Source: Candidatus Kaiserbacteria bacterium
Lineage (GTDB): Bacteria > Patescibacteriota > Minisyncoccia > Phycocordibacterales > UBA2100
Reading direction: 5' to 3'
Assembly (NCBI GenBank): GCA_963767115.1
Contig: CAVYCR010000003.1
Span: 175,377 to 237,224, forward strand
Length of the DNA stretch: 61,848 bases
Shown: positions 30,629 to 61,848 of the stretch, one piece after another
How the letters are laid out: every line of letters begins with the position of its first letter
Position numbering within the stretch: the stretch's first letter is position 1
Translations under genes and position numbers: made by a program
The notes under the pieces: generated by a model
The model's input: the letters and a program-made list of their open reading frames with translations, nothing else
Told to the model about the DNA's origin: nothing
Database searches by the model: none

Positions 30629-31963
30629 ATGGAAGCACATATAGCAGAAGGGTTGGCACAGATGGGTGTCGCCGCGCCCGAAGAGCAGAAAGTGGTCGAT
30701 ATCAAGTATTGTTTGTACGCACGCAAGAGCACCGAGGATGACGAGCATCAGGCGCTCAGTATTGAGTCGCAGATCAAGGAGATGGCTGCGCTCGCGGCGA
30801 GAGAAAAGTTGGATGTGGTTGAAGTGCGCTCGGAGAAGCACTCGGCTAAGGCCGCAGGTCAGCGACCAGTGTTCCAACAATTACTGGCAGACGTGCGTGA
30901 GGGAAAGTTCAACGGCATCCTTACCTGGGCACCTGACAGGTTGAGTAGAAATGGAGGCGACCTCGGCGTGTTGGTCGATCTCATGGACCAAAAATCGTTG
31001 GTCGAAATCAGAACGTACACGCAGAAATTTACCAATAATCCCAATGAAAAGTTTCTGCTGATGATACTCGGCAGCCAAGCTAAACTTGAAAACGACAACA
31101 AAAGCCTCAACGTAAAGCGCGGATTGAAGGCTCGCGCTGAGATGGGACTCTGGCCCGGCATCGCGCCGACAGGATATCTCAATGACAATCGGAGCGATCA
31201 CAAATGCGAAATCCTTGTCGATCCGATTCGCTCGTCGGTAGTGAAGCAGATATTCGAAAAGGTTGGGCGCGACCGGATGAGCGGTAGAAAAGTGTACGCA
31301 TGGTTGAAATATGAAATCCGATTTACCCATCGCTCCAGCAAACCGCTTAGTTTGAGCAATGTGTATAACGTACTCAAAAATCCCTTCTACTGCGGTATGT
31401 TCGAATATCCGCGCGGGGGTGGTCAGTGGTACACCGGCAAGCACACGCCACTCATCACCAAAGAGCTCTTCCAGCTGGTGCAGGAAAAAATTGCAGAGGA
31501 GAATCGGCCCAAGAAGAAGTTCCAGGACTTCACCTTCACCAAGCTCATGACGTGCGGATACTGCGGTTCCGGTATCACCGCGCAGGAAAAGTCCAAAACC
31601 ATCAAATCAGATGGCTCCGTACGTTGGTATATCTACTACAGCTGCGACAAGTTCAAAGATCACCACTGCAAGAATCCGTTCATTCGCGAGGACAATTTGG
31701 TCATGCTACTGCTCGAACTGATTGATCAGATCTCAATCGATGAAATCGGGGCGCGGCATCTCATCGAGCTGGAGGTACAGCGATACAACCAGCTGCGAGC
31801 CGCGATGGGTCATACCGATAAAGACAAGGCGAGAGATATGGACGTGAGAAAATATGCAAAATACCTCTTGCAGCACGGCGCATCAACAGAAAAGCGTGAA
31901 TTGTTGCAGCATCTCCGCAACCGTATCGTGATGAAAGACAAGAAAATATTTCTCGAAAGTTGA
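30629..31963 (+). CDS. Large serine recombinase (resolvase/invertase catalytic domain + recombinase domain + zinc ribbon)
   Basis: [22 protein letters not shown] (catalytic Ser region), [12 protein letters not shown], a central recombinase domain, CGYCGSGIT...[12 protein letters not shown] zinc ribbon, and a coiled-coil tail. Confidence 0.88.
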
Positions 31964-32083
31964 CCGACACGAAAACGTCGAGCGATTTGCTCGGCGTTTT
32001 CGCGTCTCGACCCCTCTCGGTTGCGAACCGGCCTCGATGAGTTTTGAGGCCTCATGGACGCATGAATGGGCTGCTGACTGCTG

Positions 32084-32155
32084 TGCCCGCGGTAGGAATC
32101 GAACCTACATCTATCCCTTAGGACGGGAGTGCTCTATCCATTGAGCTACGAGGGC
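32084..32155 (-). tRNA. tRNA-Arg (CCT), no encoded CCA, with non-canonical pairs
   Basis: Reverse complement is GCCCTCGTAGCTCAATGGATAGAGCACTCCCGTCCTAAGGGATAGATGTAGGTTCGATTCCTACCGCGGGCA. Anticodon loop GTCCTAA. There is a T5-C68 mismatch in the acceptor stem and C27-T43 in the anticodon stem. Confidence 0.75.
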
Positions 32156-34058: not shown

Positions 34059-34284
34059 CGAGGATTACGCCATCGGCATTTGATCGTGTTCAGACCCGCT
34101 GTACATTTCGTGACCGCGCATGCAGTGGGCGCTTGCATTTTCCCAATCTCATAGTATAATTTCACGTAGATTACAAGGGACTTTGAAATTAGTGTGCCTT
34201 GGCAGAAAGCGCTTATTTACGGAGCCTTTTCTGCTACGGCACACTCGCATCCGCGACTGTGCTTTGTTAGCAAGGAGAACTCTG

Positions 34285-34938
34285 ATGGCAATCATCGGAA
34301 ATCTGCCGGGCGAGCGCTTGGCGGGTCTTGCTGCCGACACCTTCCACAAGGTTCAGCACGGAATCATCACCCTCGACGAATGGGCGTTGTTCAATCAGCG
34401 CAAGAACCCGTTCAGCTTCGAGCGCAATGAGCACGGCCACATCACCGTGACCGTGACCGGCCTCGACCTTTTGGGAGCGCAAGAAATCGCGCGACTCGAA
34501 GCGGCAGGATATCGCCTGAGCGATTGGTCGAAGTCTTGTCTCTTGAGCACGAAGCCGGACAGCTACGACGCCAACCATCGGCTCGTTGCTGGCCAGGTGT
34601 ATAAGATCGCGCTCATGCCGGGCAAAGAGATCGAACGTGACTCCGACCGCACGACCGAAAACCTTCGGAAGCGCGGAATTGAGCACTACGGCTACGGCAA
34701 GCCGCTTGCAGGCATCGTCCCGCGCATTCGCGAGGCGGTATCCGACAAACAGCTTGAGGAGATGGGCATCTGGTACGCCGCCGCGCTTCACGATCCGATC
34801 AAGGATTCTGACGGCGCTCCGGACGTGCTCAATGCGTATCGCTGTGGCGATGGTCGGTGGCTCGACGCGCGTTGGGGCAAGCCCGGCAATCAGTGGTTTG
34901 GCAATAGCGCGTTCGCGTTCCCCGTCCCGCAAGTTTGA
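34285..34938 (+). CDS. DGR target (variable) protein; the C-terminal 43 codons are the variable region
   Basis: ATG 34285 lies 7 nt after AAGGAG (34272-34277). The C-terminus ...DSDGAPDVLNAYRCGDGRWLDARWGKPGNQWFGNSAFAFPVPQV is the VR copy of the downstream template repeat. Confidence 0.85.
   Translation: MAIIGNLPGERLAGLAADTFHKVQHGIITLDEWALFNQRKNPFSFERNEHGHITVTVTGLDLLGAQEIARLEAAGYRLSDWSKSCLLSTKPDSYDANHRLVAGQVYKIALMPGKEIERDSDRTTENLRKRGIEHYGYGKPLAGIVPRIREAVSDKQLEEMGIWYAAALHDPIKDSDGAPDVLNAYRCGDGRWLDARWGKPGNQWFGNSAFAFPVPQV
34806..34932 (+). repeat. DGR variable region (VR)
   Basis: 127 nt, gap-free alignment to 35264-35390. 13 mismatches, all where TR has A. Confidence 0.9.
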
Positions 34939-34988
34939 ACTTAGGGCTTTGTACCTTGGGTCTCCTTTGACCCTTTGCACTTTGTCCT

Positions 34989-35021
34989 CGGCTCCGCAAT
35001 AAAATGCGGAGCCGATTTTTT
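34989..35021 (+). terminator. Hairpin plus T-run downstream of VR (terminator, possibly the DGR target-site hairpin)
   Basis: CGGCTCCGCA-ATAAAA-TGCGGAGCCG (10-bp stem) followed by ATTTTTT, 57 nt after the end of VR. Confidence 0.7.
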
Positions 35022-35263
35022 GTTACAATACGAAAGGTAGTAGGTGAATACGCGGGTGATCAAGGTTGCTCGCTACCGAACCCAGTATCCGTACGTTGAG
35101 AACATTTGCGATCACGGTTTCAAATGGAGGGCGTACGCAGACACTTCAAAAATTGAAGATACTTGGTGTGGAGTGCTGGAGCATTTAAGATGCCGAATAA
35201 GATACAGCTTGGAGATCGGCGCAAGCCTTCGATGAGCAGTGACATGGATGGCACTCCACACGT

Positions 35264-35390
35264 TTCTGACGGCGATCCGAACGTGCTCAATGCGAATCGC
35301 AATGACGATGGTCGGTGGCTCAACGCGAATTGGGACAAGCCCGGCAATCAGTGGAATGACAATAGCGCGTTCGCGTTCCCCGTCCCGCAA
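35264..35390 (+). repeat. DGR template region (TR)
   Basis: Non-coding copy of VR, rich in AAY/GAY codons in the VR frame (SDGDPNVLNANRNDDGRWLNANWDKPGNQWNDNSAFAFPVPQ). Confidence 0.9.
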
Positions 35391-35396
35391 CTCTCT

Positions 35397-35759
35397 TCAT
35401 TTCTCGCCCCGCTTCACAGCGGGGTTGAGTTTTGCAAGATGTCCCTGCCATCCACCGAGCATCTTACCCACCTTGTCCATTTTCTCGGAAAGTGTGATGT
35501 ACTGTTTCGCATCGATCGATGCTGTCTCCCAGAGGATCATCAACAGCAGTTTCAGTGTATCTACTTTCCGCGTTGCAAGCCGTACATACGGCACCTTTTC
35601 CTCGTGCGAGAGAAACGCCGCGGCAGAGACTGCTTCCATCGTTTCTATATACAAACCATCAATCCGTACACCAAGCGAGTACCGATGCACTTTCGGAATG
35701 ATAGAGTGGTACTCATGCCACAACAAATAAGCTTGTTTGACGTGATCCAAAAGAGGCAA
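35397..35759 (-). CDS. avd: Avd-like accessory variability determinant (four-helix-bundle / 23S rRNA IVS protein family)
   Basis: 120 aa, helical. KAYLLWHEY..., SLGVRIDGLYIETMEAV and KMDKVGKMLGGWQGHL fit the Avd/IVS family style. TTG start. It is on the strand opposite TR and RT. Confidence 0.8.
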   Translation of the reverse strand: MPLLDHVKQAYLLWHEYHSIIPKVHRYSLGVRIDGLYIETMEAVSAAAFLSHEEKVPYVRLATRKVDTLKLLLMILWETASIDAKQYITLSEKMDKVGKMLGGWQGHLAKLNPAVKRGEK

Positions 35760-35833
35760 AACCGTGCGGGGGGGGTAGAGTTCATAGAATTGTTTTTACT
35801 CATACCTACGAGGCTATCATATCGGTCGAAAAT

Positions 35834-36778
35834 TTGCTCGCCGCATGGCAAGAGTTCATTCGTGGCAAGCGCAAGAAAGCAGACGTGCAGGACTTCCAAT
35901 ATCGCCTGATTGACAACATCTTCACGCTCCATCGAGAATTGAAGAATAAAACGTATCGCCACGGCGCGTACGAAGCGTTCAAGATCAACGACCCAAAACC
36001 GCGTGATATCCACAAAGCGACAGTGCGCGATCGTCTCGTACATCATGCGATCTACCGGAAACTCTATCCATCATTCGACACCACATTCACTGATGATTCG
36101 TACTCGTGCCGAAGACACAAGGGTACGCACAAAGCGATGAGCCAGTTTCGCGCCTTTGCATATCAAGCAAGTAAAAATCACAAGCACACGGTTTGGATAC
36201 TCAAGTGTGATATTCGGAAATTCTTCGCATCGATAGATCAAGCGATCCTGCTCGATATTGTTGCTCGTTACATTCCAGAAAAGGGCATCAACGCGCTCAT
36301 CGCGGAAGTGGTCGGCAGTTTCCATTCAACGGAACCCGGCAGAGGCCTCCCGCTCGGCAACCTCACCTCGCAACTCCTCGTCAATATCTACATGAACGAG
36401 TTTGACCAATTCGTAAAACACAAGCTCAGGGCAAGATATTATGTGCGGTACGCGGATGACTTCGTTTTCATGAGCACTGATCGAGTGTGGCTTGAAGGAT
36501 TGATTCCATGTATCGCACAGTTTCTCGACGAACACCTCACGCTTTCGCTCCATCCCGACAAAGTCTCGATTGCCACACTTGCATCAGGTGTTGATTTCTT
36601 GGGTTGGGTGCACTTCCCGGATCACCGCGTATTGCGCACCTCGACGAAGCAACGAATGCTCAAACGCGTTCGGGGATTAGAAGAGGAGAGCCCGACCGTA
36701 CAATCGTATCTCGGAATGCTGCGGCATGGGAATACGCACATACTGTCTCAACTGGTGTTGGAACGGGGGCGCATGTAA
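35834..36778 (+). CDS. DGR-type reverse transcriptase
   Basis: RT motifs: KPRDIHKATVRDRLVHH, ILKCDIRKFFASID, LPLGNLTSQLLVNIYMNEFD (DGR-clade GxxxSQ), YVRYADDFVFM, and LGWV thumb. The listed start is TTG 35834. RT-like residues (HTYEAIISVENL) continue upstream without a canonical start. Confidence 0.9.
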   Translation: MLAAWQEFIRGKRKKADVQDFQYRLIDNIFTLHRELKNKTYRHGAYEAFKINDPKPRDIHKATVRDRLVHHAIYRKLYPSFDTTFTDDSYSCRRHKGTHKAMSQFRAFAYQASKNHKHTVWILKCDIRKFFASIDQAILLDIVARYIPEKGINALIAEVVGSFHSTEPGRGLPLGNLTSQLLVNIYMNEFDQFVKHKLRARYYVRYADDFVFMSTDRVWLEGLIPCIAQFLDEHLTLSLHPDKVSIATLASGVDFLGWVHFPDHRVLRTSTKQRMLKRVRGLEEESPTVQSYLGMLRHGNTHILSQLVLERGRM

Positions 36779-37759: not shown

Positions 37760-38503
37760 CTATCTATCCACAAACGGTTCAAGGTCGGCCTTATGGCGGT
37801 CGGTCAGCGAAATTGTACGATCCGAGTCACTCTTGCCGAGTGTTTTCAACACTGCCAGGTCGTTACTCCATGATGTACCGTCCCACCACTCAAGTGGCGC
37901 GAAGTTGGTCTTGTAGAGCGCTTTCTCACCGTAGAGGGTACCGAGATAATAATGGGAAAGGCCGCGGGATCGTGCTTCGCGCAGACAATCGAGCATGAGC
38001 CAGAGACCAAATGATGATTTGTCGTACTCTTCAGCATACGCAGAAAACCAGAAGTGCCCCATCGAACCTTCAGCAACTTCGATGATCGCAGCTATAGTTC
38101 GATTGACTTTACTGTATGAAATGATCGAGGGTGGTAAACCGGAGTCTAAAATCAAATCGAGTCGTTCGGCGGGCATTACCGATCCGTGTCGGCGTACGAA
38201 ATATTCGAGAAATAATGTACGAATATCGTCAGATGCGATACCGATGATCTCTCGAGAAAACATGGCGTCGAATTTCTTGGCGATGCGGCGATTCTCGCTA
38301 TCGAGGTCGAACCTCGACAAATCGATACGCGCGCTTCGCGCCATATAGAAAAGATTGCGCACGTCTTTGGCGCCCGAGTAAGGCAAATACCCGCGATCAT
38401 ATATTTCATTCAAGGTATCCCCTTTCTCGCGCTCGCAATAATTCGCATACCCAAACGTGTACGAATCGTAATTGTGCACGAGCTCGGCCGAAAAGATTCT
38501 CAT
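37760..38503 (-). CDS. Aminoacyl-tRNA--protein transferase, ATE/Bpt-like
   Basis: The C-terminal part HYYLGTLYGEKALYKTNFAPLEWWDGTSW resembles the ATE_C motif (YLGY...YK..F.P.E...G.W). Start set at ATG 38503, because the listed N-terminal extension runs through tRNA-Gly. Confidence 0.65.
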   Translation of the reverse strand: MRIFSAELVHNYDSYTFGYANYCEREKGDTLNEIYDRGYLPYSGAKDVRNLFYMARSARIDLSRFDLDSENRRIAKKFDAMFSREIIGIASDDIRTLFLEYFVRRHGSVMPAERLDLILDSGLPPSIISYSKVNRTIAAIIEVAEGSMGHFWFSAYAEEYDKSSFGLWLMLDCLREARSRGLSHYYLGTLYGEKALYKTNFAPLEWWDGTSWSNDLAVLKTLGKSDSDRTISLTDRHKADLEPFVDR

Positions 38504-38504
38504 G

Positions 38505-38575
38505 TGCGGGATACGGGAATCGAACCCGTGTCTAATGCTTGGGAAGCACTTGTTCTGCCATTTAACTAATCCCGC
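38505..38575 (-). tRNA. tRNA-Gly (CCC), no encoded CCA
   Basis: Reverse complement is GCGGGATTAGTTAAATGGCAGAACAAGTGCTTCCCAAGCATTAGACACGGGTTCGATTCCCGTATCCCGCA. Acceptor GCGGGAT/ATCCCGC, anticodon loop TTCCCAA. Confidence 0.85.
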
Positions 38576-38714
38576 CTTCGGTCCGTCGGAGCGGACCTTC
38601 GGCTTGGCTATGCCCGCTAAAGTACGCCTGAGCGTACTTTCGTGTAATGAATCCGCGGAAAGTCCGCGGAGGCGACTATAGCTTGCAAATAAATGTAACA
38701 AAATTATTGTCTAG

Positions 38715-42892: not shown

Positions 42893-42918
42893 AAAAGAGC
42901 CCGATTAAGGGCTCTTTT
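42893..42918. terminator. Bidirectional hairpin between murJ and rnpB
   Basis: AAAAGAGCCC-GATTAA-GGGCTCTTTT. Confidence 0.7.
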
Positions 42919-42921
42919 GTG

Positions 42922-43256
42922 CCTACACCATAAGCCGGATTCTGTGCTGAATTTAATCAGGGCAGTCATATATCTGGGATCGTTGTTACCAACAACCTCA
43001 AGCGGCTCTCTTGTTACCACGCGTGGTTGCAACAAGCACGGCCTTGCACGCAAGTAGGAATTTTGCCGTTGCACCTCCATGTCGCCATGGAGTTCATCCG
43101 CCGAAGGCGGAGCTCTCGCCTCTCGGCTTGAGCGTTTCTGTTCGCATCCCTGGGATTACCCCGACGGGTGTTACCCGCTACCGTTCTCCACTTTTGTGGG
43201 CGTGTCCGGACTTTCCTCTCCTCGATCACTCTCGGAGCGACTGCTTGGCGCAGAAA
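42922..43256 (-). ncRNA. rnpB: RNase P RNA (bacterial type)
   Basis: The minus strand reads ...GAGGAGAGGAAAGUCCGGACACGCC... (universal GGAAAGUCCGG P4 strand) and, near the 3' end, ...CACAGAAUCCGGCUUAUGG... (the ACAGAAnCCGGCUUA P4/P1 strand). Length is ~335 nt. Ends are approximate. Confidence 0.85.
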
Positions 43257-51909: not shown

Positions 51910-53040
51910 ATGTTCAGCCAGCAACTTCAATTTCGCTCGACATTCCGCCTGCGACGCCGTGGCATCGCGCGCTGGTGATGGTTTTGTTCGTGCTCGCAAT
52001 CACGGCCGTGCTCGGAGCCGCGATGCTCAGCAGCAGCTCGCTTCAATCGGACGTCAGCGCGACGACGGTCAAATCCGCCGAGGCCGACGCCCTGGCCGAA
52101 TCCGGCGTGCAGATCGCCGAATATTATCTCGCCCATCCCGCCGACAAGCCCGTCGGCTGGCCCAGTTTTTCTTTCACGCCGACCCAATTGCCCAAAGGCT
52201 CGGTCGCCGTGAGCGTCAGCGGAAGCAATCCCTACGTCATCACCTCAACTGCCAACGATTCGACGGATGCCACCGGCGCCATCTCGCGCCATCTCCAGCA
52301 CGGTCGCCGTGAACAGCCAATATGACATCAACGCCGCCCTCACGGCCAACACCGCGATCGCGCTCTCCAGCAAGGTCGCGCTGACGATCAACTCCGTGGC
52401 GCTGGCGGATGTGATCAGCACCGGAACGGTTTCCGGCGCCGCCTCCTTTTCGGTCGACGCCAACTCCGCGACCGGCGGACCCACCGTCGCCAACGTCAAC
52501 ACTTATCAAACCTACACGCTCCCCAGCGGCCAAACCGGAACGGCCCAGAAAATTAGCGGAAATCTCACGATCTCTTCCGCGTCGAGCCTGCCCACGCCGC
52601 TGGCCACGAATCCCGGCGACGTCTATTACGTCTCTGGCAACATCACCTTCAGCCTGGCCGCCGCCACGACTTTCACCGGCACCCTGATCTCCACCGGCAA
52701 CATCGTGCTGAACACCAGCAGCAAAACGCCGACCATCAATCCCGTGACAGGGCTGCCAGCCATCGTCGCGCTGGGCAAATTCACCGCCAACGCCGCCGCC
52801 ACTGGCCTCACGACCAACGGCGTGGTCTTCCTCGGCACCGGCCTGGGCACAACCAACGGAAACACAACCCTGACGCTGCTCATCAACGGCGCCCTGCTGA
52901 TCGACACCGCCGGCATGACGAGCACCTTCGTTGCCCACCTGACCGTCAATTACAATCTGTCCAGCGCCGGCGCCGTCCCAGCATTGAGCACCGTCAACCA
53001 GACGCCCGTGAGCGTCACCGTCACCCAATGGACTGATTGA
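51910..53040 (+). pseudogene. Pseudopilin/PilX-like protein with a long Thr/Asn/Gly-rich beta-helix-like domain; two frameshifts
   Basis: ATG 51910 gives MFSQQLQFRSTFRLRRRGIA. A +2 shift follows in a GC repeat (~51967-51972), then LVMVLFVLAITAVLGAAML... A +10 shift (tandem GCCATCTC duplication, 52278-52297) follows, then ISSTVAVNSQYD...VTVTQWTD* ending at 53040. Confidence 0.65.
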
Positions 53041-53061
53041 TCGCGGGGTCGGCATTTGTAG

Positions 53062-53078
53062 GGTGGGCATTGCCCACC
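53062..53078. repeat. Palindrome GGTGGGCA-T-TGCCCACC (second copy at 60969-60988)
   Basis: Preceded by GTAGG in both copies. The 60969-60988 copy has a 4-nt centre (TACC). Confidence 0.8.
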
Positions 53079-53106
53079 ATCCACGCTGTCAAAACAGGAG
53101 ATCGTT

Positions 53107-53364
53107 ATGAACTTGAAATTCCCATCAGCATCCAACATGCTCGCGATCGTAATTGTCTTGCAGATTCTCATCCTCGCAACGCTCTGGTGCGGCGGTCCGC
53201 TGCAATCGGCCCGAGCACAAATCCCGGATGCCGGCGCCCAGCGCGACGAACAGATCAACCAGGCCAAGCAAACCAACCTGAAGCTCGACACGCTCATCGG
53301 CATTCTTGAGGGCGGCAAACTTCAGATCGAGATCGCCAAGCCCGATGATTCCAAAGGCGGGTGA
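53107..53364 (+). CDS. Small membrane-anchored protein, hypothetical
   Basis: 85 aa with one TM (MLAIVIVLQILILATLW). Intact ORF. Confidence 0.5.
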   Translation: MNLKFPSASNMLAIVIVLQILILATLWCGGPLQSARAQIPDAGAQRDEQINQAKQTNLKLDTLIGILEGGKLQIEIAKPDDSKGG

Positions 53365-53398
53365 ATTCTGTGGCTGCATCGGCGTGAACGCCAATGTT

Positions 53399-53517
53399 CC
53401 CTCTCCATGTACTCAGGGAGAGGGTCAGGGTGAGGGTTCTTCGATTTCGCAGCAACTGTTCGACTGCAGCAAAAATACACCCTCACCCCCGCCCTCTCCC
53501 TGAGTACATGGAGAGGG
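53399..53517. repeat. 119-bp imperfect inverted repeat built from CCCTCTCC...GGGAGAGGG sub-palindromes
   Basis: CCCTCTCCATGTACTCAGGGAGAGGGTCAGGGTGAGGGT (53399-53437) against 53479-53517, with about 3 mismatches. Confidence 0.85.
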
Positions 53518-53548
53518 AGTAAATCGGCTCGAAAGGGTTCCTGTAACG

Positions 53549-54102
53549 ATGAATCGCGTGGGTTCAATTTCACTTCGATCGCGAACGGCGTTCACGCTCG
53601 TGGAGATTCTCTGCGTGATCGTCCTCTTGGCGATCGTCGCGGCGATCGTGCTGCCCGGCGCCGCTTCCGCCGACGAATCCGGCGTCGCCGCATCGGCCGC
53701 GCGAACGCTGATGGCCGATCTTCTTTACGCACAGAGCCGGGCCATCTCCACCCACGCGTGCCACTACGTCGTCTTCGATTCGACCAACGACAGCTACAGC
53801 GTGCAATTTTGCAGCGGGGCGTCGGCCCTTCCCGTGACCGACCCGGAAACCAGCCAGCCGATGAACAGTTCCAATAACCTCACCCGCCTCGGCGGCGCCA
53901 CGATCACGCAGTTCAACGTCGGCCCCAACGCGGGCATCGTCTTTGACGCCATGGGCATTCCGTATGCCTATTCTCCAACCACGCTCACTCCCGCGCTCTA
54001 CGAGGGGCTGCTCGAGCACGCCGGGCACGATCACGGTCAACGGCGCACACCAAGTTGACGATCACCATCGACAACGACAACGGCGCCATGACCGTCCAAT
54101 AA
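53549..54102 (+). pseudogene. GspH/FimT-like pseudopilin, C-terminus needs 2 frameshift corrections
   Basis: Prepilin motif RTAFTLVEILCVIVLLAIVAAI. The C-terminus is split over three frames (...LYEGLLEHAG / GTITVNGA / HTKLTITIDNDNGAMTVQ*). Confidence 0.7.
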
Positions 54103-54239
54103 AACTCCTCGATTGCTTCGGTTCAGGCGCGCTCTGTTTATGCCGAATTTACCGACAGAGGCCTGCGCACTCCGCGGCTCGCGTTCTTGAAATGGACTGA
54201 AAGCAGCCAAAACGGCGGCGTTCGGACCGACATCGCATC

Positions 54240-55619
54240 ATGTTTGGAAAACGTGAAAAACATCAGCCGCTCGCCCTGGACCTGGGCTATGACAGCGTGA
54301 AGCTGCTGCAATTGCAGGTCGCCGGTGGAAGGCTTTCCGCAAAAGCGGCATTCCGCGCACTGCGCTAATCCCGGCGATGCCTATCTGCCCGCCGCCCTCG
54401 ATCTGGCGAAAAATCTCGTCCGCCAGCACGGGCTTGCCGGAAGTCCATGCGTCGCCTGTTTGCCGCGCCACATCGTTCACACCAAAAATCTGCGTCTGCC
54501 GGTGATGCCGGCTTCGGAGCTTACCGCCGCCGTGCAGTTTGAAGCCGTCAATCTTTTTCCCTTCGACACCGAGCAGGCGACCGTGCAGTACCTTGCCGCC
54601 GGCGAGGTTCGCCATGGCGCCGACGTGCGGCAGGAAGTCATCGTCTTCGCCGCCAAAAATGAGGAAGTCGACCAGTTCGTCGATCAGCTTCATCGCATCG
54701 GCCTCGTGCCAGTGTCGCTGGACGTCGAGCCCGTTGCGCCTCTTCCGATCGATCGAACGCTTCGTTCGCCGTCGCGAGGATGAGCAGGAAGTCAGCGTGC
54801 TGGTCGATGTCGGCGCCCAGCGCAGCCAGGTGGTGATCGGCAAGGGTCGCGAGCTGAGCTTCTTCAAGTCCATTGAAGTCGGTGGTCAGCGCTTGAATGC
54901 CGCCGTCAGCCGCAAGCTGGGCATCAGCGTCGAGGAAGCCCGTTCACTGCGAAAACGCCTCTACGCGGAAAACATTTCCGAAGCCGACACGGCGATCGAT
55001 GAGTCCACCCGCCGCGACGCAGTGCGCCAAGCCGTGCTCGACGCGACGCGCAGCACCATCGAAGAACTGGCTCGCGAAATCGCTTTGTGCCTTGGATATG
55101 ACTTCCGTCACGTTCCGCGGCCATCGGCCATAGCGCGTTCGATTGCTCGGCGGCGAAGCGCACGACACGCACTTACTCTCCGTGCTTCAGAGCACTTTGC
55201 CAGTCCCCGTCGAAGCCGGCCGGCCGCTGTTCAATGTCGATCTTTCAGCGGCGAAAATCGTCGCCACTCAAAGCCAGAACAGCGAATGGGCCACCGCATT
55301 CGGACTGGCGTTGCGAAAGACGGAGGGAACCTTTAGTCCGATGGACGGCACGCCAAGGCCGCCGGGAACCTGGCAGCCGGCGTCCAAGGCCGGCCAACCG
55401 CCGGCCGCCGCCCCCGCGCCATCGCCGAGCGTCGCCGCACCGCCAGTATCCACTGAACAGACGTCCCCAACCTCGCCGCGCGGCGCCCTGATCGATCTCC
55501 ATCAACTCATCCCGCAGCATGGCGCTGCCCCGATCGAACCCCAGGTCGGCTCGATCGAAGCCGGCAGCGCAAGAGGCTCTGAATTATCCACCGCCAAATC
55601 GGAGGCCGCCCATGCGTGA
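54240..55619 (+). pseudogene. pilM: PilM-like actin-fold pilus assembly ATPase; 3 frameshifts plus an in-frame TAG
   Basis: MFGKREKHQPLALDLGYDSVKLLQL..., then ANPGDAYLP...FAAKNEEVDQFV...LDVEPVA, then LFRSIERF...VLVDVGAQRSQVVIG...EELAREIALCLGY, then SVTFRGHRP-TAG(55131)-RVRLLGGEAHDTHLL..., then a Pro/Ala-rich tail. Confidence 0.8.
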
Positions 55620-56228
55620 ACTTGAATTCCTCCCGAGATGGTATCCCGGCATGGTACGTCGCCGCCGCGCGTTGATCCTGCAAGTCTGGGCCGCCGCCGC
55701 GCTGGCGCTGGGCCTGTCGATTCAATCGGCCATCGGACATCACGCGCTACGCAACGCCCAGACCAGCCTCAGCGGATTGCAGCAGAAACTCTCGCAGACC
55801 GATGACGATCTGCTCCGCCTCGGCGAGCAGCGCGCCCTTCGATCGCAGTTGCAGCAGCAGAACGAAGTGATCGCGCGCCTCGGCCCGCACGTCCCGGCAG
55901 CGCCATTGATGGCGGCGCTGGCCGAAGACATGCCCCCGCAAACCGCGCTGCTCGACCTCACGCTCAACCAGATCGAAAAGACTCGTCCCGCCTCCGCGCT
56001 GGCGACCGCACGCGGCGACGCCAACGCCGCCGTCGATCGACGCCTCAGCGTCACGCTCACCGGCGTGGCGCCCTCCGACATGGAGCTGGCGAATTTTCTC
56101 GATCGCCTCAACTCGCTCCCCTGCGTGCAGGATATCGCCATGGCCTACGCCAAGGATCGCGACAGGCCGGGCATCTGATGCGCGAATTCTCCATCAACTT
56201 CTGGATCGACTTAAGCGGAGACAATTAA
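55612..56228 (+). pseudogene. pilN: PilN-like protein, one frameshift near 56165
   Basis: MRELEFLPRWYP...RRRALILQVWAAAALALGL (TM) followed by a coiled coil. The C-terminus HLMREFSINFWIDLSGDN* is in another frame. The ATG overlaps the pilM stop. Confidence 0.7.
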
Positions 56229-56277
56229 TCGACCGTCAACGAATCGATTTAACTCCTGCAAATTGCCCGTGAATGTA

Positions 56278-56857
56278 ATGGCCACCGCGAACATCAAAAC
56301 TTCGATCGAGATGTACAAGCGAATGCAGATCGTGATCGGTCTGTCGATGCTCGCCGCCGCGCTGAGCTTCTACTTTCTCGACAGCCGTCCCGGCGTCGCC
56401 CGCATGGCCGCCCTTGGCGACGCCATTCGCGGCAAACAGGAAGAGCTGAACCTCAACGTCGCCCAGGCCAACAACCTTCCCGCAGTCGCCGCAGAAGTTG
56501 CCAAGCTCAAAAATCGGCTCGCCGATTCCAAGCGAGTGCCCAATGGCGCCGAGCTCGGCGAATTCATCCGCGACATCAATACGCTGTCCCAGGAAGCGCA
56601 GCTTCACAAGCAGCGTGTCACGCGCGGCACGGTGCTTCACCAGGGATCTCTATTGCACCCAGCCCATCACGATCGAGTTTGAAGGCGATTTTCTCAACGC
56701 GTTCACCTTCATCCGCGAGCTGGAAAACATGAGCCGGCTCACGCGCATCGACTCGCTGGCGATCCATCAGGTCGACAATTCCAGCGGCCAGGTCAGCGTG
56801 CAGCTCGTCATGGACATTTATTACCGGGAGGATCCGACATGGATTCCCCAGCCATAA
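56278..56857 (+). pseudogene. pilO: PilO-like protein, one frameshift near 56620-56640
   Basis: TM (QIVIGLSMLAAALSFYF), a coiled coil, then PITIEFEGDFLNAFTFIRELENMSRLTRIDSLAI... in a second frame. Confidence 0.7.
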
Positions 56858-57442
56858 ACCAATATGCCGATGCGCTGGCCAAGGCTTGGCGGGCGGATCC
56901 CAAGCGATCCTGGACGCTTCTGGCGCTCTGCGGCGTGCTCGCGATCGTGGTGGGGCGGCTCGCCTTGCATCAATCGCCAAGCACCGCCTCCGCCGCCGCG
57001 CCTCCGGCGCAGCGACCTGGCGGATCGGCAATCGGGCCAAGCCCAGGCCGCGTCTCCACGCCCTTCGGTCGCCCAGTGGGCCAATCAGAAATACAGTGTT
57101 CCCGAGCACAACCTCTTCGTGCCCCGGCTTGAATACTTCCCGCTGGCTGACGGAAATTTATCGGACGACTCCTCCGACGCCGATGCCGCCGCCAAGGCAA
57201 AGTCGGAGCAGGCGGCGGCCGATGAAAAGAAAGAGCGGCAGAAATTAGCGGACCAGCTTCAATCCGAAGCCGCTTCGCTTGAGCTCGAAACCACCATGAT
57301 GGGCCCCACGCCCCGTGCCATGATCAGCGGCGCCTTGGTGGGCGAGGGCGATATGGTCTCCGATTTCCGCGTGGTGAAAATCACCCAGCGTTTCGTGATC
57401 CTGGAAAGCCAGGGCGTGCAGATCGAATTGAAGATGAATTGA
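56839..57442 (+). pseudogene. PilP-like small pilus assembly protein, one frameshift near 57040
   Basis: N-terminal TM (WTLLALCGVLAIVVG), then in another frame ...MISGALVGEGDMVSDFRVVKITQRFVILESQGVQIELKMN*. Confidence 0.55.
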
Positions 57443-57529
57443 AGTTGCAATGAAATGAATCGGCGATCAATTCGCCACAGGTATCGGCCTCGCCGCTGAG
57501 TCGGTTGGCCGATTGCCGGAGGAATTGTT

Positions 57530-59656
57530 ATGACGACATCGAAAAAGGCCAGGGCCTTTCTTTTTTTGGCCGCGGTGTCCGTTTATTCCGGTCATGCGGT
57601 TTCCATCGTCGGCAACGATTCGGCCGCCTATGCCGATGCTCCGGCCGCCGTTGACGCGCCCGCGCCCCCAATCGCTGCGCCGACACCTACAGCCGAAGCC
57701 GTAACGCCAGCGCCAGCCGAAGCCCCCACCGCGCCCGCCACGCAAAACTCCGCCGGTTGGACCCCGCCCAACGATCTCATCGTCGTCGGCCCCAAGGCGC
57801 CCGCGGCCCACATCGTGATGGCCGACAACGGCGCCATCGCCAACCTGAATATCGCAAAAGCAACCGATATGGAAGATGTCCTCCGCTGCATCGCCCAGGT
57901 GACGCATCTGAACATCATCCCCGTCGCCGACGCCCACGGCATCGTCCCCGCGATGGACCTCTACAACGTTACCATCCCCGAAGCCCTCGCCGCCGTGCTG
58001 CACACGAACGATTTGGAGTATCGCCAGGTCGGCAACCTCTATTACATCTATAGCCAGAAGCAGTTGGCCGCCCTCGAAAAGCAGCGGCTGACGACGCAGG
58101 TCTTCACGCTCTATTACACGCCCGCCGACAACGCCGCCGAAATGATCAAGCCCGCGCTGTCAGCCGACGCCCAGGTGAAAGTCAGCAAGGCCGCCATCAC
58201 CGGCATCGACACCGAATCCACCGAAGGCGCCAGCAGCACCACCGGCGGCGGCGGCACCACCGACACCGGCGGAAATTCCCACGCCACGCAAGACATGATC
58301 GTCGTCAACGACTATCCGGAAAATCTCGAAGCCGTCGCCAAAATCATCAAGCAGATCGATCACCGCCCGCAGCAGATTCTGCTCGAAGCCACGATCCTGC
58401 AAGCCACGCTCACCGACGACAACGAAATGGGCGTCGATTTCAGCGTGCTCGGCGGCGTGAATCTCTCCAGCATCGCGCAGGCCCCCTATGCCGCCGGCGC
58501 CTCCGCATCCAACGGCAGCCTCACCAACACCACCGGCACAGCCTCCTCCAGCGCCTCCGGCGCCACCACTGCCGCCCCCGGCGGCACGACCAATTACACC
58601 GCCGCCAACACCGGCTTCACCCAGAACGTCACCCCCGGCGGCCTTCAACTCGGCATCGTCTACGACAATCTCGCCGTCTTCGTCCGCGCCATCGAGCAGG
58701 TCACCAACACTGTCATCCTCGCCAACCCCAAAGTGCTCGCCTGGACAAACAAGAAGGCGAAGTCCTCGTCGGCCGCGAAGACGGATATTTGACGACGACC
58801 GTCACCCAGACGTCGCAAACCCAAACCGTCGCCTTCAACGACACCGGCACCAAACTAGTCTTCCGACCCTTCATCGCCGCCGACGGCTACATCCGCATGG
58901 AGATACCACCCCGAAGACTCCACCGGCGGCACGACGACTCAGGCCAACAACGTCATCCCCTTCAAGGTCACGACGCAGGTCACCAGCAACGTCATGGTCA
59001 AGGACGGCAACACCATCGTCATCGGCGGCCTGTTCCGCGACGACACCCAGACCTCCCGCTCCCAGGTCCCCGTCCTCGGAAACATCCCCTGGCTCGGCAC
59101 GTTATTCCGCTCGCAGGTCGACACGACAACTCGCCAGGAAATCATCATCCTGCTCACCCCGCACATCATCAAAGATGACTCGGCCTACAGCAATCTCTCC
59201 GAAGATCAGCTTAAAGAAGCCGAGAAACTCCGTGTCGGCGTGCGCGAAGGCATGATGTTCTTTGGCCGCGAGCGCCTCGCCGACTCCTCCTACGAAGAAG
59301 CCGTCGCCGAAATGCGCAAGCAAAACCCCGACGTGAACAAAGCCCTCTGGCATCTCGATCTCGCGATCGATCTGAATCCCCAGTTCGTCGAAGCCATCGC
59401 CATGCGTGAACGCCTGACCGGCCAGATCGTCACCGACCCGGACTTCAGCTCCATCCGAAGCTTCGTCCGAAAATCGATCCTCGAAGACGTAACGCCAACA
59501 GATGCCGATGTTCTAGACCCAGGAACATTGCCCGGCCAGCCCGCTTCGCCGACGCAAGCAGCAATCCGTCGCGACCCCGTCCTCGGCCACAACCGAACCG
59601 AGCGACCGGCGCTCCACCGCGTCCGGCAACTAACACGAACCAAAAAAACCCCATGA
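57530..59656 (+). pseudogene. pilQ: Secretin (PilQ/GspD family), two compensating frameshifts (~58742 and ~58908)
   Basis: Signal peptide, N-domains, then the secretin core: ILLEATILQATLTDDNEMGVDF..., ANPKVLA|LDKQEGEVLVGREDGYL...FRPFIAADGYIRMEI|HPEDSTGG...VKDGNTIVIGGLFRD...VPVLGNIPWLGTLFR...EIIILLTPHII. Confidence 0.85.
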
Positions 59657-60908
59657 AAACACCTAAAAAATCATTCTCATCAATCGCCGCCCTCGGCCTG
59701 ACCGCCCTAGCCCTCGCCGGCTGCGCCTCCACCTCGAAGCCGAATCCACCTTCGGCCAAAGAACTCGGCGCCCAGCAGTGGAATGCCACCCGCGCCTCAG
59801 TCCTCCTGACGCTGGCTAAAGATCAATACAACCACGGCAACTTCGACAAGTGCAAGCAGACAATCGATCAAGCCGAGCGCCTCGATCCCAGGAGCGATGC
59901 CATTTCCGTCCTGAGCGCCCAGCTAGCCATCGAGCAGGGCGACATGGACATCGCCGAGCACGAGCTTTCCGAGGCTCGCACCAACAACCCCAAAAACGCG
60001 CAAGCGTTTTATTTAAGCGGCGTCGTCTACCAGGCTGGGACCAACCCCAGCGCGCCTATGAAATGTACACGCAAGCCGCCACGCTCGACTCCACGCAACT
60101 CGCCTACATCATGGCCTGCGCCGAGATGCTCGTGTCGATCGACCGCGCCCCCGAAGCCCTAGCGTTATTGCAGGACAAGGTCTCCCAATTCGAAAACAGT
60201 GCAGTCTTATGTGACGCCGTAGGAATGCTCTTATCCCAACAACATCGCGACGCCGAGGCGATAGACATGCTCCAGCGCGCCACCATCCTGGCGCCCGATG
60301 ACAAAGGCATTAGAGAGCACTACGCCCTGGAGCTTCTGCGACTCCACAACTATCCCGAAGCCGCCGACCAACTCCATCGCCTCCTCTCGCCGCCGGCCCC
60401 CGATCCCTACAATCTCCCCGACCCCACCGAGGTCGCGAAGTCCGATCCCTACGCAACCCGCGCAGACCTCTGGCTGGCCCTAGGCCAATGCCAGATGGAG
60501 ATGCACGACCCACACACGCCGAGCAAAGCTTCGAATCCGCCGTCAGTTTAGACGCCAACAACCCCGCCGCCTGGCGCACCCTGGCAAATCCGCTCTAATG
60601 AATAACGACGCAAAATGCCGCCTGCAAGTCCGCCGACCGCGCCTTGGCCCTGAACCCCCAGGACCCCGAAACGCTGCTCTTCAGCGGCTACGTAAATCTA
60701 AAAACCAACAAACCCCAGCAAGCGTTAATCAACTTCGCCGCCGCCAGCAAGCTCGATCCGAAGGACACGCTGACTCTCTGCATGATGGGCTACGCCTTAG
60801 AGCGAATGAACCAACCCCAGCGCAACAGAGTATTACGCCGAGGCTCTAAAACTCTCCCCGAATGACGACCTGGCCAAAACCCTGATGAACGACGCGCGGA
60901 AGATGTAA
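59653..60908 (+). pseudogene. TPR-repeat lipoprotein (PilF/PilW-like), at least 5 frameshifts
   Basis: Lipobox LALAGCAS. TPR-like helices are spread over all three frames, ending ...LSPNDDLAKTLMNDARKM* at 60908. The ATGA overlaps the secretin stop. Confidence 0.65.
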
Positions 60909-61068
60909 TTGCGACGCCGGGCCACTCTTCGCGTATACCATCGGATTCGCGACATCATCTTCCCGTAGGGTGGGCATACCTGCCCACCAACGACTCATGA
61001 TTGCGCTCGACGCTGGTCCACGGCTCAATGGATCGGTGCGATCCAGACAAAATGCGAAAGCCGGGCAT

Positions 61069-61432
61069 ATGCAAAACGACGATGCCCCCATCGAATTAGC
61101 ATACGGACAACGCCCACGCCGTCGCTTGGTCTTCACCCCATTGATCGTGGCCGTCGCGCACTTCGCCGTCACGGCGTTGTTGTGGCGGCACAGTTTCGAT
61201 CGGTTCGATGACCAACCTGGTGAGCGCGATCGGAAATTCTTCATACCATGCTCCAGCCCCCACTCCCGTTGATCGCATGATTGACTTTGTGGTCAATGGT
61301 CTGATGTTTCCGATTTCCGAGTTAAGGCTCGATCTGAATCCCTACGCCGTCATCGCGCTGAACAGCTTATGCTGGGCTTTCTTCGGCTGGTGCGCTATCC
61401 AAATCTTTCAACGCGCGAAAGTGAAAAAGTGA
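61069..61432 (+). pseudogene. Small membrane protein, one frameshift near 61240
   Basis: MQNDDAPIELAYGQRPRRRLVFTPLIVAVAHFAVTALLW... continues in another frame as ...MIDFVVNGLMFPISELRLDLNPYAVIALNSLCWAFFGWCAIQIF... Confidence 0.4.
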
Positions 61433-61526
61433 CATCCAGGCATCAATGGTATTTGTCGACAGATGCCCCCTTTTCCGTTTCCTTCAATAGCCGGAGGCTA
61501 ACAGCCTCCGGTCCCGGACCCTCCCG

Positions 61527-61848
61527 TCAACCGGAATTTCGATACTCCGCAAAGCCATAATACTTTGGCCGCAAATCCAGCCGGACATGCGACCAAGGCA
61601 CGCCCATTCCCGCCGTGCTTAGCCAGACTGGTTTCGTATCCAGCCGCTCCTCCATCGCTTGTCCGACCGCAATCCAAAGCTCATTTGCCTGCGCGGAGGA
61701 TGCTTCGCGGGCACCGATAGGGGGACTTTCTTTTCCGTCACCAGGGGGATAAGAGGTCACCTCGAGACGAAAAGAGCGAGACGAAAGAGAAGTGACCTGC
61801 TCTATGCTCGACCAGCAGAAAGGGCTGCTGATTTCCCGCCTATACCGA
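61527..61848 (-). CDS. Hypothetical protein, 5' end beyond the window
   Basis: The minus-strand frame is open from the window edge to TGA 61527-61529 (...VTSYPPGDGKESPPIG...WLSTAGMGVPWSHVRLDLRPKYYGFAEYRNSG*). I recognise no family. Confidence 0.4.
   Translation of the reverse strand, partial: RYRREISSPFCWSSIEQVTSLSSRSFRLEVTSYPPGDGKESPPIGAREASSAQANELWIAVGQAMEERLDTKPVWLSTAGMGVPWSHVRLDLRPKYYGFAEYRNSG

Follow-up and report, generated by a model that had tools for sequence, protein, structure and literature searches.

A CPR-type DGR of architecture B3 in Kaiserbacteria-like DNA, with a probable TR RNA unit of its own and a probable ATT start of the RT gene

The window analyzed here, a 61,848-nt stretch of DNA from a Candidatus Kaiserbacteria bacterium, carries a target gene, a VR and TR pair, an avd gene, and an RT gene. 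The target gene (34120..34938, plus strand) codes for 272 aa, has no family match in Pfam or NCBIfam, and contains the VR (34806..34932, plus strand) at its 3' end, 6 nt before its stop codon. The TR (35264..35390, plus strand) is 127 nt long and contains 30 adenines, 13 of which differ in the VR; in the gapless alignment of the two repeats (offset 458) all 13 mismatches are at TR adenines. Because the mismatches all correspond to A in the TR, the TR RNA is plus-sense, the same sense as the target and the RT, in agreement with the original prediction. In the final 31 nt, which are GC-rich and contain CCCCGTCCCGCAA, the VR is identical to the TR, and this segment appears to be the IMH-like element of the DGR. 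The RT gene (35789..36778, plus strand; 329 aa if counted from an ATT at 35789) encodes a protein that matches RVT_1 of Pfam with an E value of 9.7e-23 and has more than 8000 homologues, with LPLGNLTSQ and YADD invariant in the family alignment. Three features that mark a DGR are present: an adenine-specific TR/VR pair, a VR at the 3' end of the target, and an RT of the DGR clade (RVT_1 with the motifs [LIV]GxxxSQ and YxDD).

The avd gene (35397..35759, minus strand, 120 aa from a TTG, predicted four-helix bundle) occupies the gap between the TR and the RT, which measures 443 nt up to a TTG at 35834. It had been proposed that this ORF is Avd-like and fills the gap, and both statements stand, with the limitation that the HMM matches are below the curated cut-offs: the NCBIfam model DivGenRetAVD (NF033474) matches the product with an E value of 5.6e-13 and 49.1 bits (cut-off 80), and the Pfam model bAvd (PF22296) with an E value of 2.3e-8 and 34.9 bits (cut-off 40). 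The sequence homologues among the matches listed (120 of 194) carry PF22296. Searches of the PDB by sequence, with the single sequence and with a profile, gave no Avd match for the product. The AlphaFold (AF2) model of the protein (pLDDT 91.7) consists of four long helices, and the best PDB match of this model in Foldseek is the Bordetella Avd 4DWL (TM 0.80-0.88), the top matches being Avd chains of 4DWL and 8UB7 (TM 0.75-0.88). Judging by the model, the minus-strand ORF is Avd-like, with the fold of the Bordetella Avd. The source annotation reduces the gene to an 80-aa version starting at an ATG. The start is most likely the TTG at 35759, which is the first Leu codon conserved in the family; in the survey of start codons, a canonical start codon for avd close to the conserved N-terminus was missing from 21 of 70 relatives. 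An upstream in-frame ATG, reached by reading through poly-C, was considered as an avd start and rejected: it is found in 8 of the 21 loci that have no local start, about the one-third expected by chance.

The arrangement in which avd lies antisense between the TR and the RT was originally predicted to be unusual, a view that the catalogue of DGR architectures does not bear out. In the catalogue of Wu et al. 2018 (NAR 46:11, PMC5758913) this is a common class, architecture B3 or TR-(avd)-RT, to which 90% of CPR DGRs belong. The order found here (target with VR, TR, reverse-strand avd, RT) is that of B3, and the locus resembles B3 elements in gene order, in orientation, in the single upstream target with a 3' VR, and in its CPR host, with no difference in layout. 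A minus-strand avd abutting the RT was found by tblastn in 73 of 74 informative related loci. The relatives are Patescibacteria MAGs; nearly all RT-homologue loci retrieved have TR/VR pairs, and in about 47 related loci a distance of about 7 nt separates the TR end from the avd stop codon, and the VR lies about 450 nt upstream. The window sequence itself is absent from public sequencing runs (word share at most 0.12). Since the layout is already catalogued, the locus is one more CPR (B3) DGR. Its VR/TR pattern is A-specific, its Avd fold and RT family are those of a DGR, and its gene order and orientation are kept in nearly all relatives. Our main reading, to which we assign a probability of about 0.8, is that the locus is an ordinary CPR-type (Kaiserbacteria-like) DGR of architecture B3 with its own TR RNA unit and an RT that starts at ATT. 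The article by Wu et al. 2018 (PMC5758913) makes no mention of a poly-G tract, start codons, a TR-RNA promoter, a 5' domain, or a terminator, and its text has 0 occurrences of the terms promoter, spacer, or start codon.

The avd TTG at 35759 and the RT TTG at 35834 diverge from a 74-nt region with a G8 run (35768..35775; C8 on the avd strand), the coordinates of which are confirmed. No other run of G or C in the window reaches 7 nt; from base composition about two G8 runs would be expected by chance in 62 kb. Of 81 related sequences, 70 have a G7-G14 run between avd and RT, and the distance from the end of the run to the ATG or ATT that follows is conserved, with the ATT at 35789 beginning 13 nt after the G8 run. 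The run is followed by a -10-like hexamer, TAGAGT (35776..35781, plus strand), 7 nt before the ATT; TAnnnT is found at this position in 30 of 70 loci. In the family, TAnnnT and a -35-like xTGGCA flank the poly-G tract, both of them weak consensus matches. In the window, GAGGCA (35753-58) could serve as the -35 element, separated from TAGAGT by a 17-nt spacer that includes the G-run. The poly-G tract is probably part of a divergent avd/RT control region of about 30 nt, where it would lie within the spacer of the RT promoter.

The G-run had also been viewed as SD-like. That it is an SD-like chance feature is not supported: it is a member of a family-wide poly-G tract, and the genes of the window largely have no SD motifs. 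It is improbable that the run is a strong Shine-Dalgarno-like ribosome binding site for the RT. It is true that five or more G can base-pair with the anti-SD CCUCC if one G-U pair is allowed, and that the run is upstream of the RT start in every locus. However, the 13-nt spacing exceeds the usual 5-9 nt, a tract of 8-14 G greatly exceeds the length of an SD, and its distance from the opposite-strand avd, for which it is poly-C, is just as short (7-9 nt). Furthermore, 20 of the 24 long window ORFs checked have no SD-like motif of the GGAG/GAGG type within 20 nt of their start, and in several of the ORFs a TAnnnT precedes the ATG by 6-9 nt.

The absence of an ATG start from both avd and RT is borne out. 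The RT frame is open from a stop at 35738..35740 and has no ATG, GTG, or TTG before 35834, where the source annotation starts the gene (314 aa). That RT-like residues are encoded upstream of this TTG is confirmed by the family alignment, in which six invariant residues (H21, Y23, I26, I27, S28, and N31) lie there. Among the relatives, the in-frame codon located 13 nt past the end of the G-run is ATG in 23 loci, ATT in 10, and GTG in one, and 7 of the 10 ATT loci, the window among them, have no canonical alternative. The RT start is most likely ATT 35789, homologous to the ATG of the family, and TTG 35834 is most likely not a start. The ATT at 35789 had been pointed out as an in-frame candidate, which stands, at a distance from the run of about 9 nt, which does not: the distance is 13 nt. 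Genes initiated at AUU exist, infC being an example, and the likeness to them is the ATT at the start position of an otherwise conserved ORF; the difference is that the context of the RT looks leaderless rather than SD-led and that no autoregulatory logic is known. The hexamer and the 7-nt spacer before the ATT look like the geometry of a leaderless mRNA. Since AUU should be an inefficient start codon on a leaderless mRNA, RT expression may be very low.

The same observations could mean that the RT gene is decaying, its ATG having mutated to ATT, and that the element is inactive. In favor of decay are the lack of a canonical RT start and the weakness of AUU as an initiator. We consider such decay quite unlikely, however, for the RT ORF is intact, with the YADD and LGNLTSQ motifs present, the 13 differences in the VR are all A-specific, and an ATT at the same position recurs, with intact ORFs, in at least three lineages (at least three places of the RT tree).

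The predicted TR RNA unit begins immediately past the target gene, which is followed by an intrinsic-terminator-like hairpin of 11 bp with a T-run (34988..35022, plus strand), found at the matching position in relatives. Just past this terminator lies an extended -10 motif, TGtTACAAT (35021..35029, plus strand), the predicted TR RNA promoter, at which the unit would begin; TGnTAnnnT is present about 240 nt upstream of the TR in 32 of 46 loci. The TR RNA would start around 35036. The region from there to the TR (35036..35263, plus strand) is predicted to form a structured 5' domain of about 230 nt with six covarying helices: P1 (35052-61/35064-73), P2 (35090-97/35130-37), P3 (35103-13/35116-26), P4 (35166-77/35250-61), P5 (35180-85/35190-94), and P6 (35207-15/35229-37). 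Compensatory changes in related loci were found for 40 of the 49 pairs of the domain, and 96% of cells are paired vs 36-49% in slid controls. The domain contains no ORF conserved across relatives; a 63-aa ORF (35044..35235) in the gap between VR and TR was rejected as a gene, the relatives conserving its nucleotides and no reading frame. When compared to Rfam, the TR RNA matched no family, the only hit being a chance match to c-di-GMP-I-GGC (E 0.54).

On its 3' side, the TR is followed by a conserved 15-nt linker, CUCUCUUCAUUUCUC (35391..35405, plus strand), the opposite strand of which includes the stop codon of avd. The segment UCUUCAUUU of the linker (35394-35402), together with the CAA that ends the TR (35388-90), pairs with an A-rich strand (35148-35165, plus strand) located just 5' of P4. 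The energies of this duplex sum to -303 for own partners vs -199.5 +/- 13 for swapped partners, and none of 5000 permutations reaches the observed value. Since the A-rich strand is next to P4 and its pairing partners are the linker and the 3' end of the TR, the TR would be looped out between two adjacent helices. The linker is followed by the hairpin GCCCCGCU-UCAC-AGCGGGGU with a U-rich tail (35406..35436, plus strand), which lies within avd codons ~108-118. The hairpin begins 15 nt after the TR and has an 8-bp stem and a tetraloop; 6 of 9 pairs show compensatory changes, and a terminator-like hairpin follows the TR in essentially all loci. It is probable that this hairpin is the terminator of the TR RNA. 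Compared with the family consensus (GUUUUGUUUU), the window has a weaker U-tract (UUGAGUUUUGC), which may allow a certain amount of read-through.

These features strongly indicate that the TR is in a separate RNA unit of about 400 nt and is not co-transcribed with the RT. The unit would consist of the structured domain, the TR, the linker, and the hairpin with its U-tract, in this order, and would end inside the last ~13 codons of avd, the only part of avd that it overlaps. No RNA sequencing runs were found for a related Hainich-type locus. According to the original prediction, a TR-spacer-RT transcript is antisense to avd; the terminator-like hairpin after the TR and the promoter and domain upstream of it point to a separate TR RNA instead, and such a transcript is unlikely. 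The chances are likewise poor that the TR, antisense avd, and RT form one transcript whose priming spacer is the reverse complement of avd. What speaks for a single transcript is that TR, antisense avd, and RT are on the plus strand, without a further gene between them, that in Bordetella TR and brt are adjacent, with the spacer 3' of the TR, and that the terminator tail of the window is imperfect. However, the conserved covarying hairpin and U-tract come directly 3' of the TR, the conservation past this hairpin is accounted for by avd codons (GGW motif), the covarying domain is upstream of the TR, as is the pairing partner of the TR 3' end, and a separate -10-like element for the RT follows the G-run.

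The DGR of Bordetella phage BPP-1 offers a comparison. There, a functional non-template spacer of 140 nt, which includes the priming adenosine, is located 3' of the TR and extends into brt (Handa et al. 2018, PMC6182149; bioRxiv 10.1101/2023.10.23.563531). The DGR RNA has an Avd-binding stem-loop after the TR, and its primer duplex adjoins a stop duplex (Handa et al., bioRxiv 10.1101/2023.10.23.563531). The two systems share adenine-specific transfer from TR to VR and an RT accompanied by an Avd four-helix bundle. In both, a stem-loop comes immediately 3' of the TR (that of Bordetella binds Avd, and the one of the window has the corresponding position), and a helix flanking the TR on its 5' side adjoins a helix at the TR 3' end. 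The Bordetella avd is upstream and co-oriented, whereas that of the window is inverted between TR and RT. Unlike in Bordetella, the covarying elements are 5' of the TR, the predicted RNA end is about 45 nt after the TR, and separate signals are predicted for the RT. A functional 3' spacer of the Bordetella type is not found: only the 15-nt linker and the hairpin with its U-tract follow the TR. We infer that the TR RNA may be a circular permutation of the Bordetella DGR-RNA topology, such that elements located 3' of the TR in Bordetella would lie 5' of the TR here; the similarity in priming would be one of topology only. With the elements placed 5' of the TR in this permuted order, the space 3' of the TR could hold the opposite-strand avd.

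The length of the poly-G tract differs by one unit in three sets of otherwise identical contigs (G9/G10, G11/G12, and G9/G10), differences that homopolymer assembly or sequencing errors could also produce. Two of 8 runs showed one extra G, and the poly-G is a place where contigs break; homopolymer error is again possible. There is no significant compensation between run length and the length of the avd-side flank (rho -0.18, p 0.16). Poly-G/C tracts in promoter spacers phase-vary in the case of porA and opc of Neisseria meningitidis and of the fim poly-C of Bordetella pertussis (PMC1891110, PMC5084427). The CPR tract resembles these in being an 8-14 nt G/C tract between a putative -35 and -10 and in the one-unit length difference between otherwise identical sequences. 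Unlike them, it is a candidate known from sequence comparison, is conserved across many CPR lineages in a mobile cassette, and is flanked by a divergent gene pair with no more than about 30 nt from start to start. Searches for poly-G, homopolymers, or phase variation in DGRs found no relevant literature.

A slippage switch could also operate at the level of translation, with the RT starting at a GTG (35764) and the G-run being read as Gly codons, out of frame with G8 and in frame with G7 or G10; for this very improbable scenario speak the G7 reading M-R-G-G-R-V-H-R-I-V-F-T-H..., which is in frame with the RT, the one-G variation between identical contigs, and the many database homologues annotated with MRGGG... 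N-termini (which arise because gene callers extend open frames), but the clade of the window has no conserved start before the run (the flanks being CCGCA, CGCAA, CTGTC, GCTTC, and others), the ORF would overlap the opposite-strand avd start, and the conserved feature is the 13-nt spacing from the run to the ATG or ATT. As part of a control region, the poly-G tract may tune or switch the expression of RT and/or avd. A combined proposal, in which a slippage-prone poly-G makes hypermutation phase-variable and CPR DGRs use a circularly permuted RNA with priming and stop elements 5' of the TR, is tentative, and we would sooner bet against it than for it.

The poly-G tract, the 5' domain, and the TR-RNA terminator were not found in Rfam or in the searchable literature, the coverage of which is incomplete. 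The features suggested at the level of the family are three: a poly-G tract (7-14 nt) at a fixed place between avd and RT, a covarying RNA domain of about 230 nt located 5' of the TR with a helix that would clamp the TR 3' end, and a putative TR-RNA terminator or stem-loop encoded opposite the C-terminal tail of Avd. It is because of these features that the source annotations of both genes (RT and Avd) are truncated. If confirmed, the three features would show how DGRs work with an inverted avd and would provide a defined RNA of about 400 nt with which a CPR DGR could be reconstituted in vitro, and the mutator may itself be under the control of a hypermutable switch.

The variable repeat (VR) of this diversity-generating retroelement (DGR) lies on the plus strand at 34806..34932, at the 3' end of the ORF 34120..34938, and the template repeat (TR) lies on the same strand at 35264..35390; their alignment, offset by 458 nt, is free of gaps and shows 13 mismatches, at every one of which the TR base is A. 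The avd ORF (35397..35759, minus strand, TTG start, 120 aa) is separated by a G8 run (35768..35775) from the plus-strand reverse transcriptase (RT) frame, which is open after the stop at 35738..35740, is matched by the RVT_1 profile, contains an in-frame ATT at 35789 and has TTG 35834 as its first ATG, GTG or TTG codon. Re-reading the region and listing its ORFs confirmed the coordinates of the original prediction, except that the ATT, placed there about 9 nt after the G-run, is actually 13 nt from it. The source annotation cuts both genes short (RT 314 aa, Avd 80 aa). The RT has more than 8000 homologues, the named ones belonging to Kaiserbacteria, Adlerbacteria, Minisyncoccota and other Patescibacteria. 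In profile searches the product of the minus-strand ORF scores below the curated cut-offs of both families that it hits, NCBIfam DivGenRetAVD (E 5.6e-13) and Pfam bAvd (2.3e-8), and sequence searches of the PDB gave no match for it; its AlphaFold model, computed from 30 homologues, consists of four long helices (pLDDT 91.7) and has two Avd chains of the Bordetella phage, 4DWL and 8UB7, as top PDB matches (TM 0.75-0.88). The fold match upholds the Avd-like nature of this ORF.

The location of an antisense avd between TR and RT had been considered unusual, but it is a common, catalogued arrangement: it corresponds to architecture B3, TR-(avd)-RT, in which the avd gene is reversed, as defined by Wu et al. 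2018 (PMC5758913), who assign 90% of their CPR set to it. We compared 80 genome loci encoding relatives of the window's RT (designated by L numbers), all from CPR-type MAGs. Of the 74 whose upstream DNA is long enough, 73 have a minus-strand avd homologue that directly adjoins RT. About 47 of these loci carry on the plus strand an A-donor repeat that ends a few nucleotides from the avd stop codon (most commonly 7 nt, as in the window), with a VR ~450 nt upstream. The window locus is thus a standard member of the B3 class, which is the norm for CPR DGRs. One Kaiserbacteria MAG (MFLL01) carries two DGRs of this type, L001 and L028, both with ATT at the RT start position and with nearly identical sequences after the G-run.

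Several features of the surrounding DNA deserve mention. A 444-aa ORF (30629..31963) with a serine-recombinase-like N-terminus lies next to tRNA-Arg(CCT) (32083..32155), ~2 kb upstream from the target gene of the DGR, and the two may mark a mobile-element boundary. A 313-aa TTG ORF (37760..38701, minus strand) overlaps tRNA-Gly(CCC) (38504..38575, minus strand), so its real start must be further downstream, and RNase P RNA is located at 42916..43256 (minus strand). At 52000..61848 the composition shifts sharply (~61% GC with strongly negative GC skew vs 45-58% GC elsewhere); the ORFs there resemble genes for prepilin, pilus assembly and secretin, with an apparent split in the secretin-like frame (57530..58792 and 58994..59656), and this part may have been acquired horizontally or result from a chimeric contig join.

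The gap between VR and TR (median 336 nt) contains the same order of elements in the relatives: short CTTTG-type repeats, the target-gene terminator, an extended -10 motif and a covarying region of ~230 nt. In the window, CTTTG/CTTGG-type direct repeats lie straight after VR (34933..34987, e.g., 34940-52 and 34973-85); their position is conserved in the relatives and they may be a recognition element flanking the IMH, the identical end segment of VR and TR. The predicted terminator of the target gene lies at 34988..35015 with a T-run (plus strand), and the extended -10 element TGTTACAAT (35021..35029, plus strand) matches TGnTAnnnT, which occurs ~240 nt before TR in 32 of 46 loci. For the ~230-nt region, which contains helices P1-P6, RNAalifold predicts 49 pairs in 24 loci, 40 of them with compensatory changes; 96% of the cells in the alignment pair vs 36-49% with partners slid, and 0 of 500 shuffles reach the observed values. 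No ORF is conserved in this region across the relatives, and Rfam contains no family matching it.

Directly past TR, essentially every locus has a conserved linker CTCTCTTCATTTCTC, a GC-rich hairpin of varying sequence and then GTTTTGTTTT. In the window, 35406..35425 with its tail is terminator-like by a consensus scan, and compensatory changes are present at 6 of the 9 stem pairs of this hairpin (30 loci). The element sits opposite the last ~13 avd codons: read in reverse complement, the hairpin and U-tract of the TR RNA encode the Avd tail (..KQNSP..GEK; 35400..35436, codons ~108-120). Since several relatives (L035, L043, L007, L079 and L049) have an earlier stop codon in this tail, it is the RNA element rather than the peptide that conservation at 35400..35436 suggests. 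A TR-spacer-RT transcript antisense to avd had been proposed; the covarying terminator-like hairpin past TR and the structured domain upstream argue against it, and a separate, 5'-structured TR RNA would largely settle the concern over a spacer antisense to avd.

An A-rich strand just 5' of helix P4 of the structured domain (35148..35165; AAAAAUUGAAGA-UAC-UUG) is complementary to the TR 3' end and linker, its plus-strand partner being CAA at 35388-90 and UCUUCAUUU at 35394-35402. The pairing is kept despite changed sequence: UACAG/CUGUA (L046), UAUUGG/CCAUA (L057), UAACA/UGUUA (L064) and CGAAGA/UCUUCG (L042), with UCG/CGA replacing UUG/CAA in L017 and L008. Over 41 loci, duplex energies sum to -303 kcal/mol with own partners vs -199.5 +/- 13 with swapped ones, and 0 of 5000 partner permutations reach -303 kcal/mol. 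As the 3' strand of P4 ends 2 nt before TR, covariation places TR in a predicted loop between the long-range helix and P4. In the RNP of the Bordetella DGR (Handa et al.), TR is followed by a stem-loop that binds Avd and then by the primer strand, which pairs with the TR 3' end; beside this pairing lies the 'cPRT stop', a duplex between the spacer and the stretch immediately 5' of TR. In the CPR RNA the same elements are neighbours in a different linear order, which would be primer-side strand, stop-duplex strand, two stem-loops, the other stop-duplex strand, TR, template-side strand, stem-loop and RNA end. From this topology we infer that the CPR RNA may be a circular permutation of the Bordetella DGR RNA. 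Read on the minus strand, the A-tract that is conserved before P4 (35148..35152) is a U-tract past the P4-P6 hairpins, so avd mRNA could run antisense through TR and end there; such an mRNA could then be complementary to the TR RNA.

The G8 run is the window's only G/C run of at least 7. Of 81 sequences, 70 have a G7-G14 run between avd and RT (one of 7, 12 of 8, 21 of 9, 18 of 10, 12 of 11, and two each of 12, 13 and 14), and this junction holds ~70 of the 80 G/C runs of at least 7 in 570 kb of related loci. The tract is not mentioned in Wu et al. or in full-text literature searches, whose coverage did not include Paul et al. 2017. Conservation across independent assemblies rules out that the tract itself arose as an artefact. 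In three sets of contigs that come from different samples and are otherwise identical, tract length varies by one G (G9 x5 vs G10 x2; G11 x4 vs G12 x1; G9 vs G10 x5), and the same locus in eight groundwater or soil runs has an extra G in two, with contigs breaking at the run; these length differences may stem from homopolymer sequencing error. Many public contigs start or stop at or a few nucleotides from the run (L019, L041, L050, L059, L066, L078, L091 and L092), and a C41 + C12 block beside the G12 of L004 (L004:637-791) is probably an assembly artefact.

The run had been proposed to be SD-like. SD-like (GGAG/GAGG-type) motifs within 20 nt of the start are absent at 20 of 24 long ORFs of the window, and several of these ORFs have TAnnnT 6-9 nt before ATG. 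The six bases after the run are TAnnnT in 30 of 70 loci, and in the commonest class exactly 7 nt separate this hexamer from the RT start codon. Given the scarcity of SD motifs and this spacing, a better reading than an SD is a putative -10 element whose mRNA has a short leader or none. If the first two avd codons, in reverse complement (xTGGCA; in the window, GAGGCA), are taken to supply a putative -35, the run falls within a spacer of 18.7 +/- 2.1 nt on average and of 17 nt in the window.

Both genes lack ATG starts in the window, as had been predicted. TTG 35834 cannot be the RT start because six residues invariant in a 29-sequence alignment (H21, Y23, I26, I27, S28 and N31) are encoded upstream of it. 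A start at GTG 35764, upstream of the run, is a minor rival: this codon is in the RT frame with G7 only, whereas the window has G8, and the relatives show no conserved start codon upstream of the run. The 'MRGGG...' N-termini annotated for database RT homologues are most simply explained as gene-caller extensions through the run. Aligning the relatives on the run gives, for the RT-frame codon 13 nt past it, 23 loci with ATG, 10 with ATT and one with GTG; other loci have an RT ATG at +8 to +19. Seven ATT loci (L001, L008, L028, L039, L049, L072 and the window) offer no canonical alternative and occupy at least three places in the RT tree, where the clade of the window includes ATT, ATG and GTG loci together with unresolved cases. 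As ATT loci retain the 13-nt distance despite a protein three residues shorter, the distance between run and RT start appears to be the constrained feature, and ATT 35789 is the best candidate start (329 aa).

On the avd side, the conserved N-terminus LP[VL]L.K.K.AY, which begins 7-9 nt past the poly-C in most loci, has TTG 35759 as the codon of its first residue. This first codon is TTG in 34 of 70 loci and another Leu codon (TTA, CTG, CTC, CTA or CTT) in 26. Of the 21 loci without a canonical avd start nearby, 8 have an in-frame upstream start through the poly-C, about the chance expectation. Judged by these counts, a non-ATG avd start would be a family trait. It is at the level of the family that the interest lies, in the poly-G tract, the non-canonical starts and the putatively permuted RNA.
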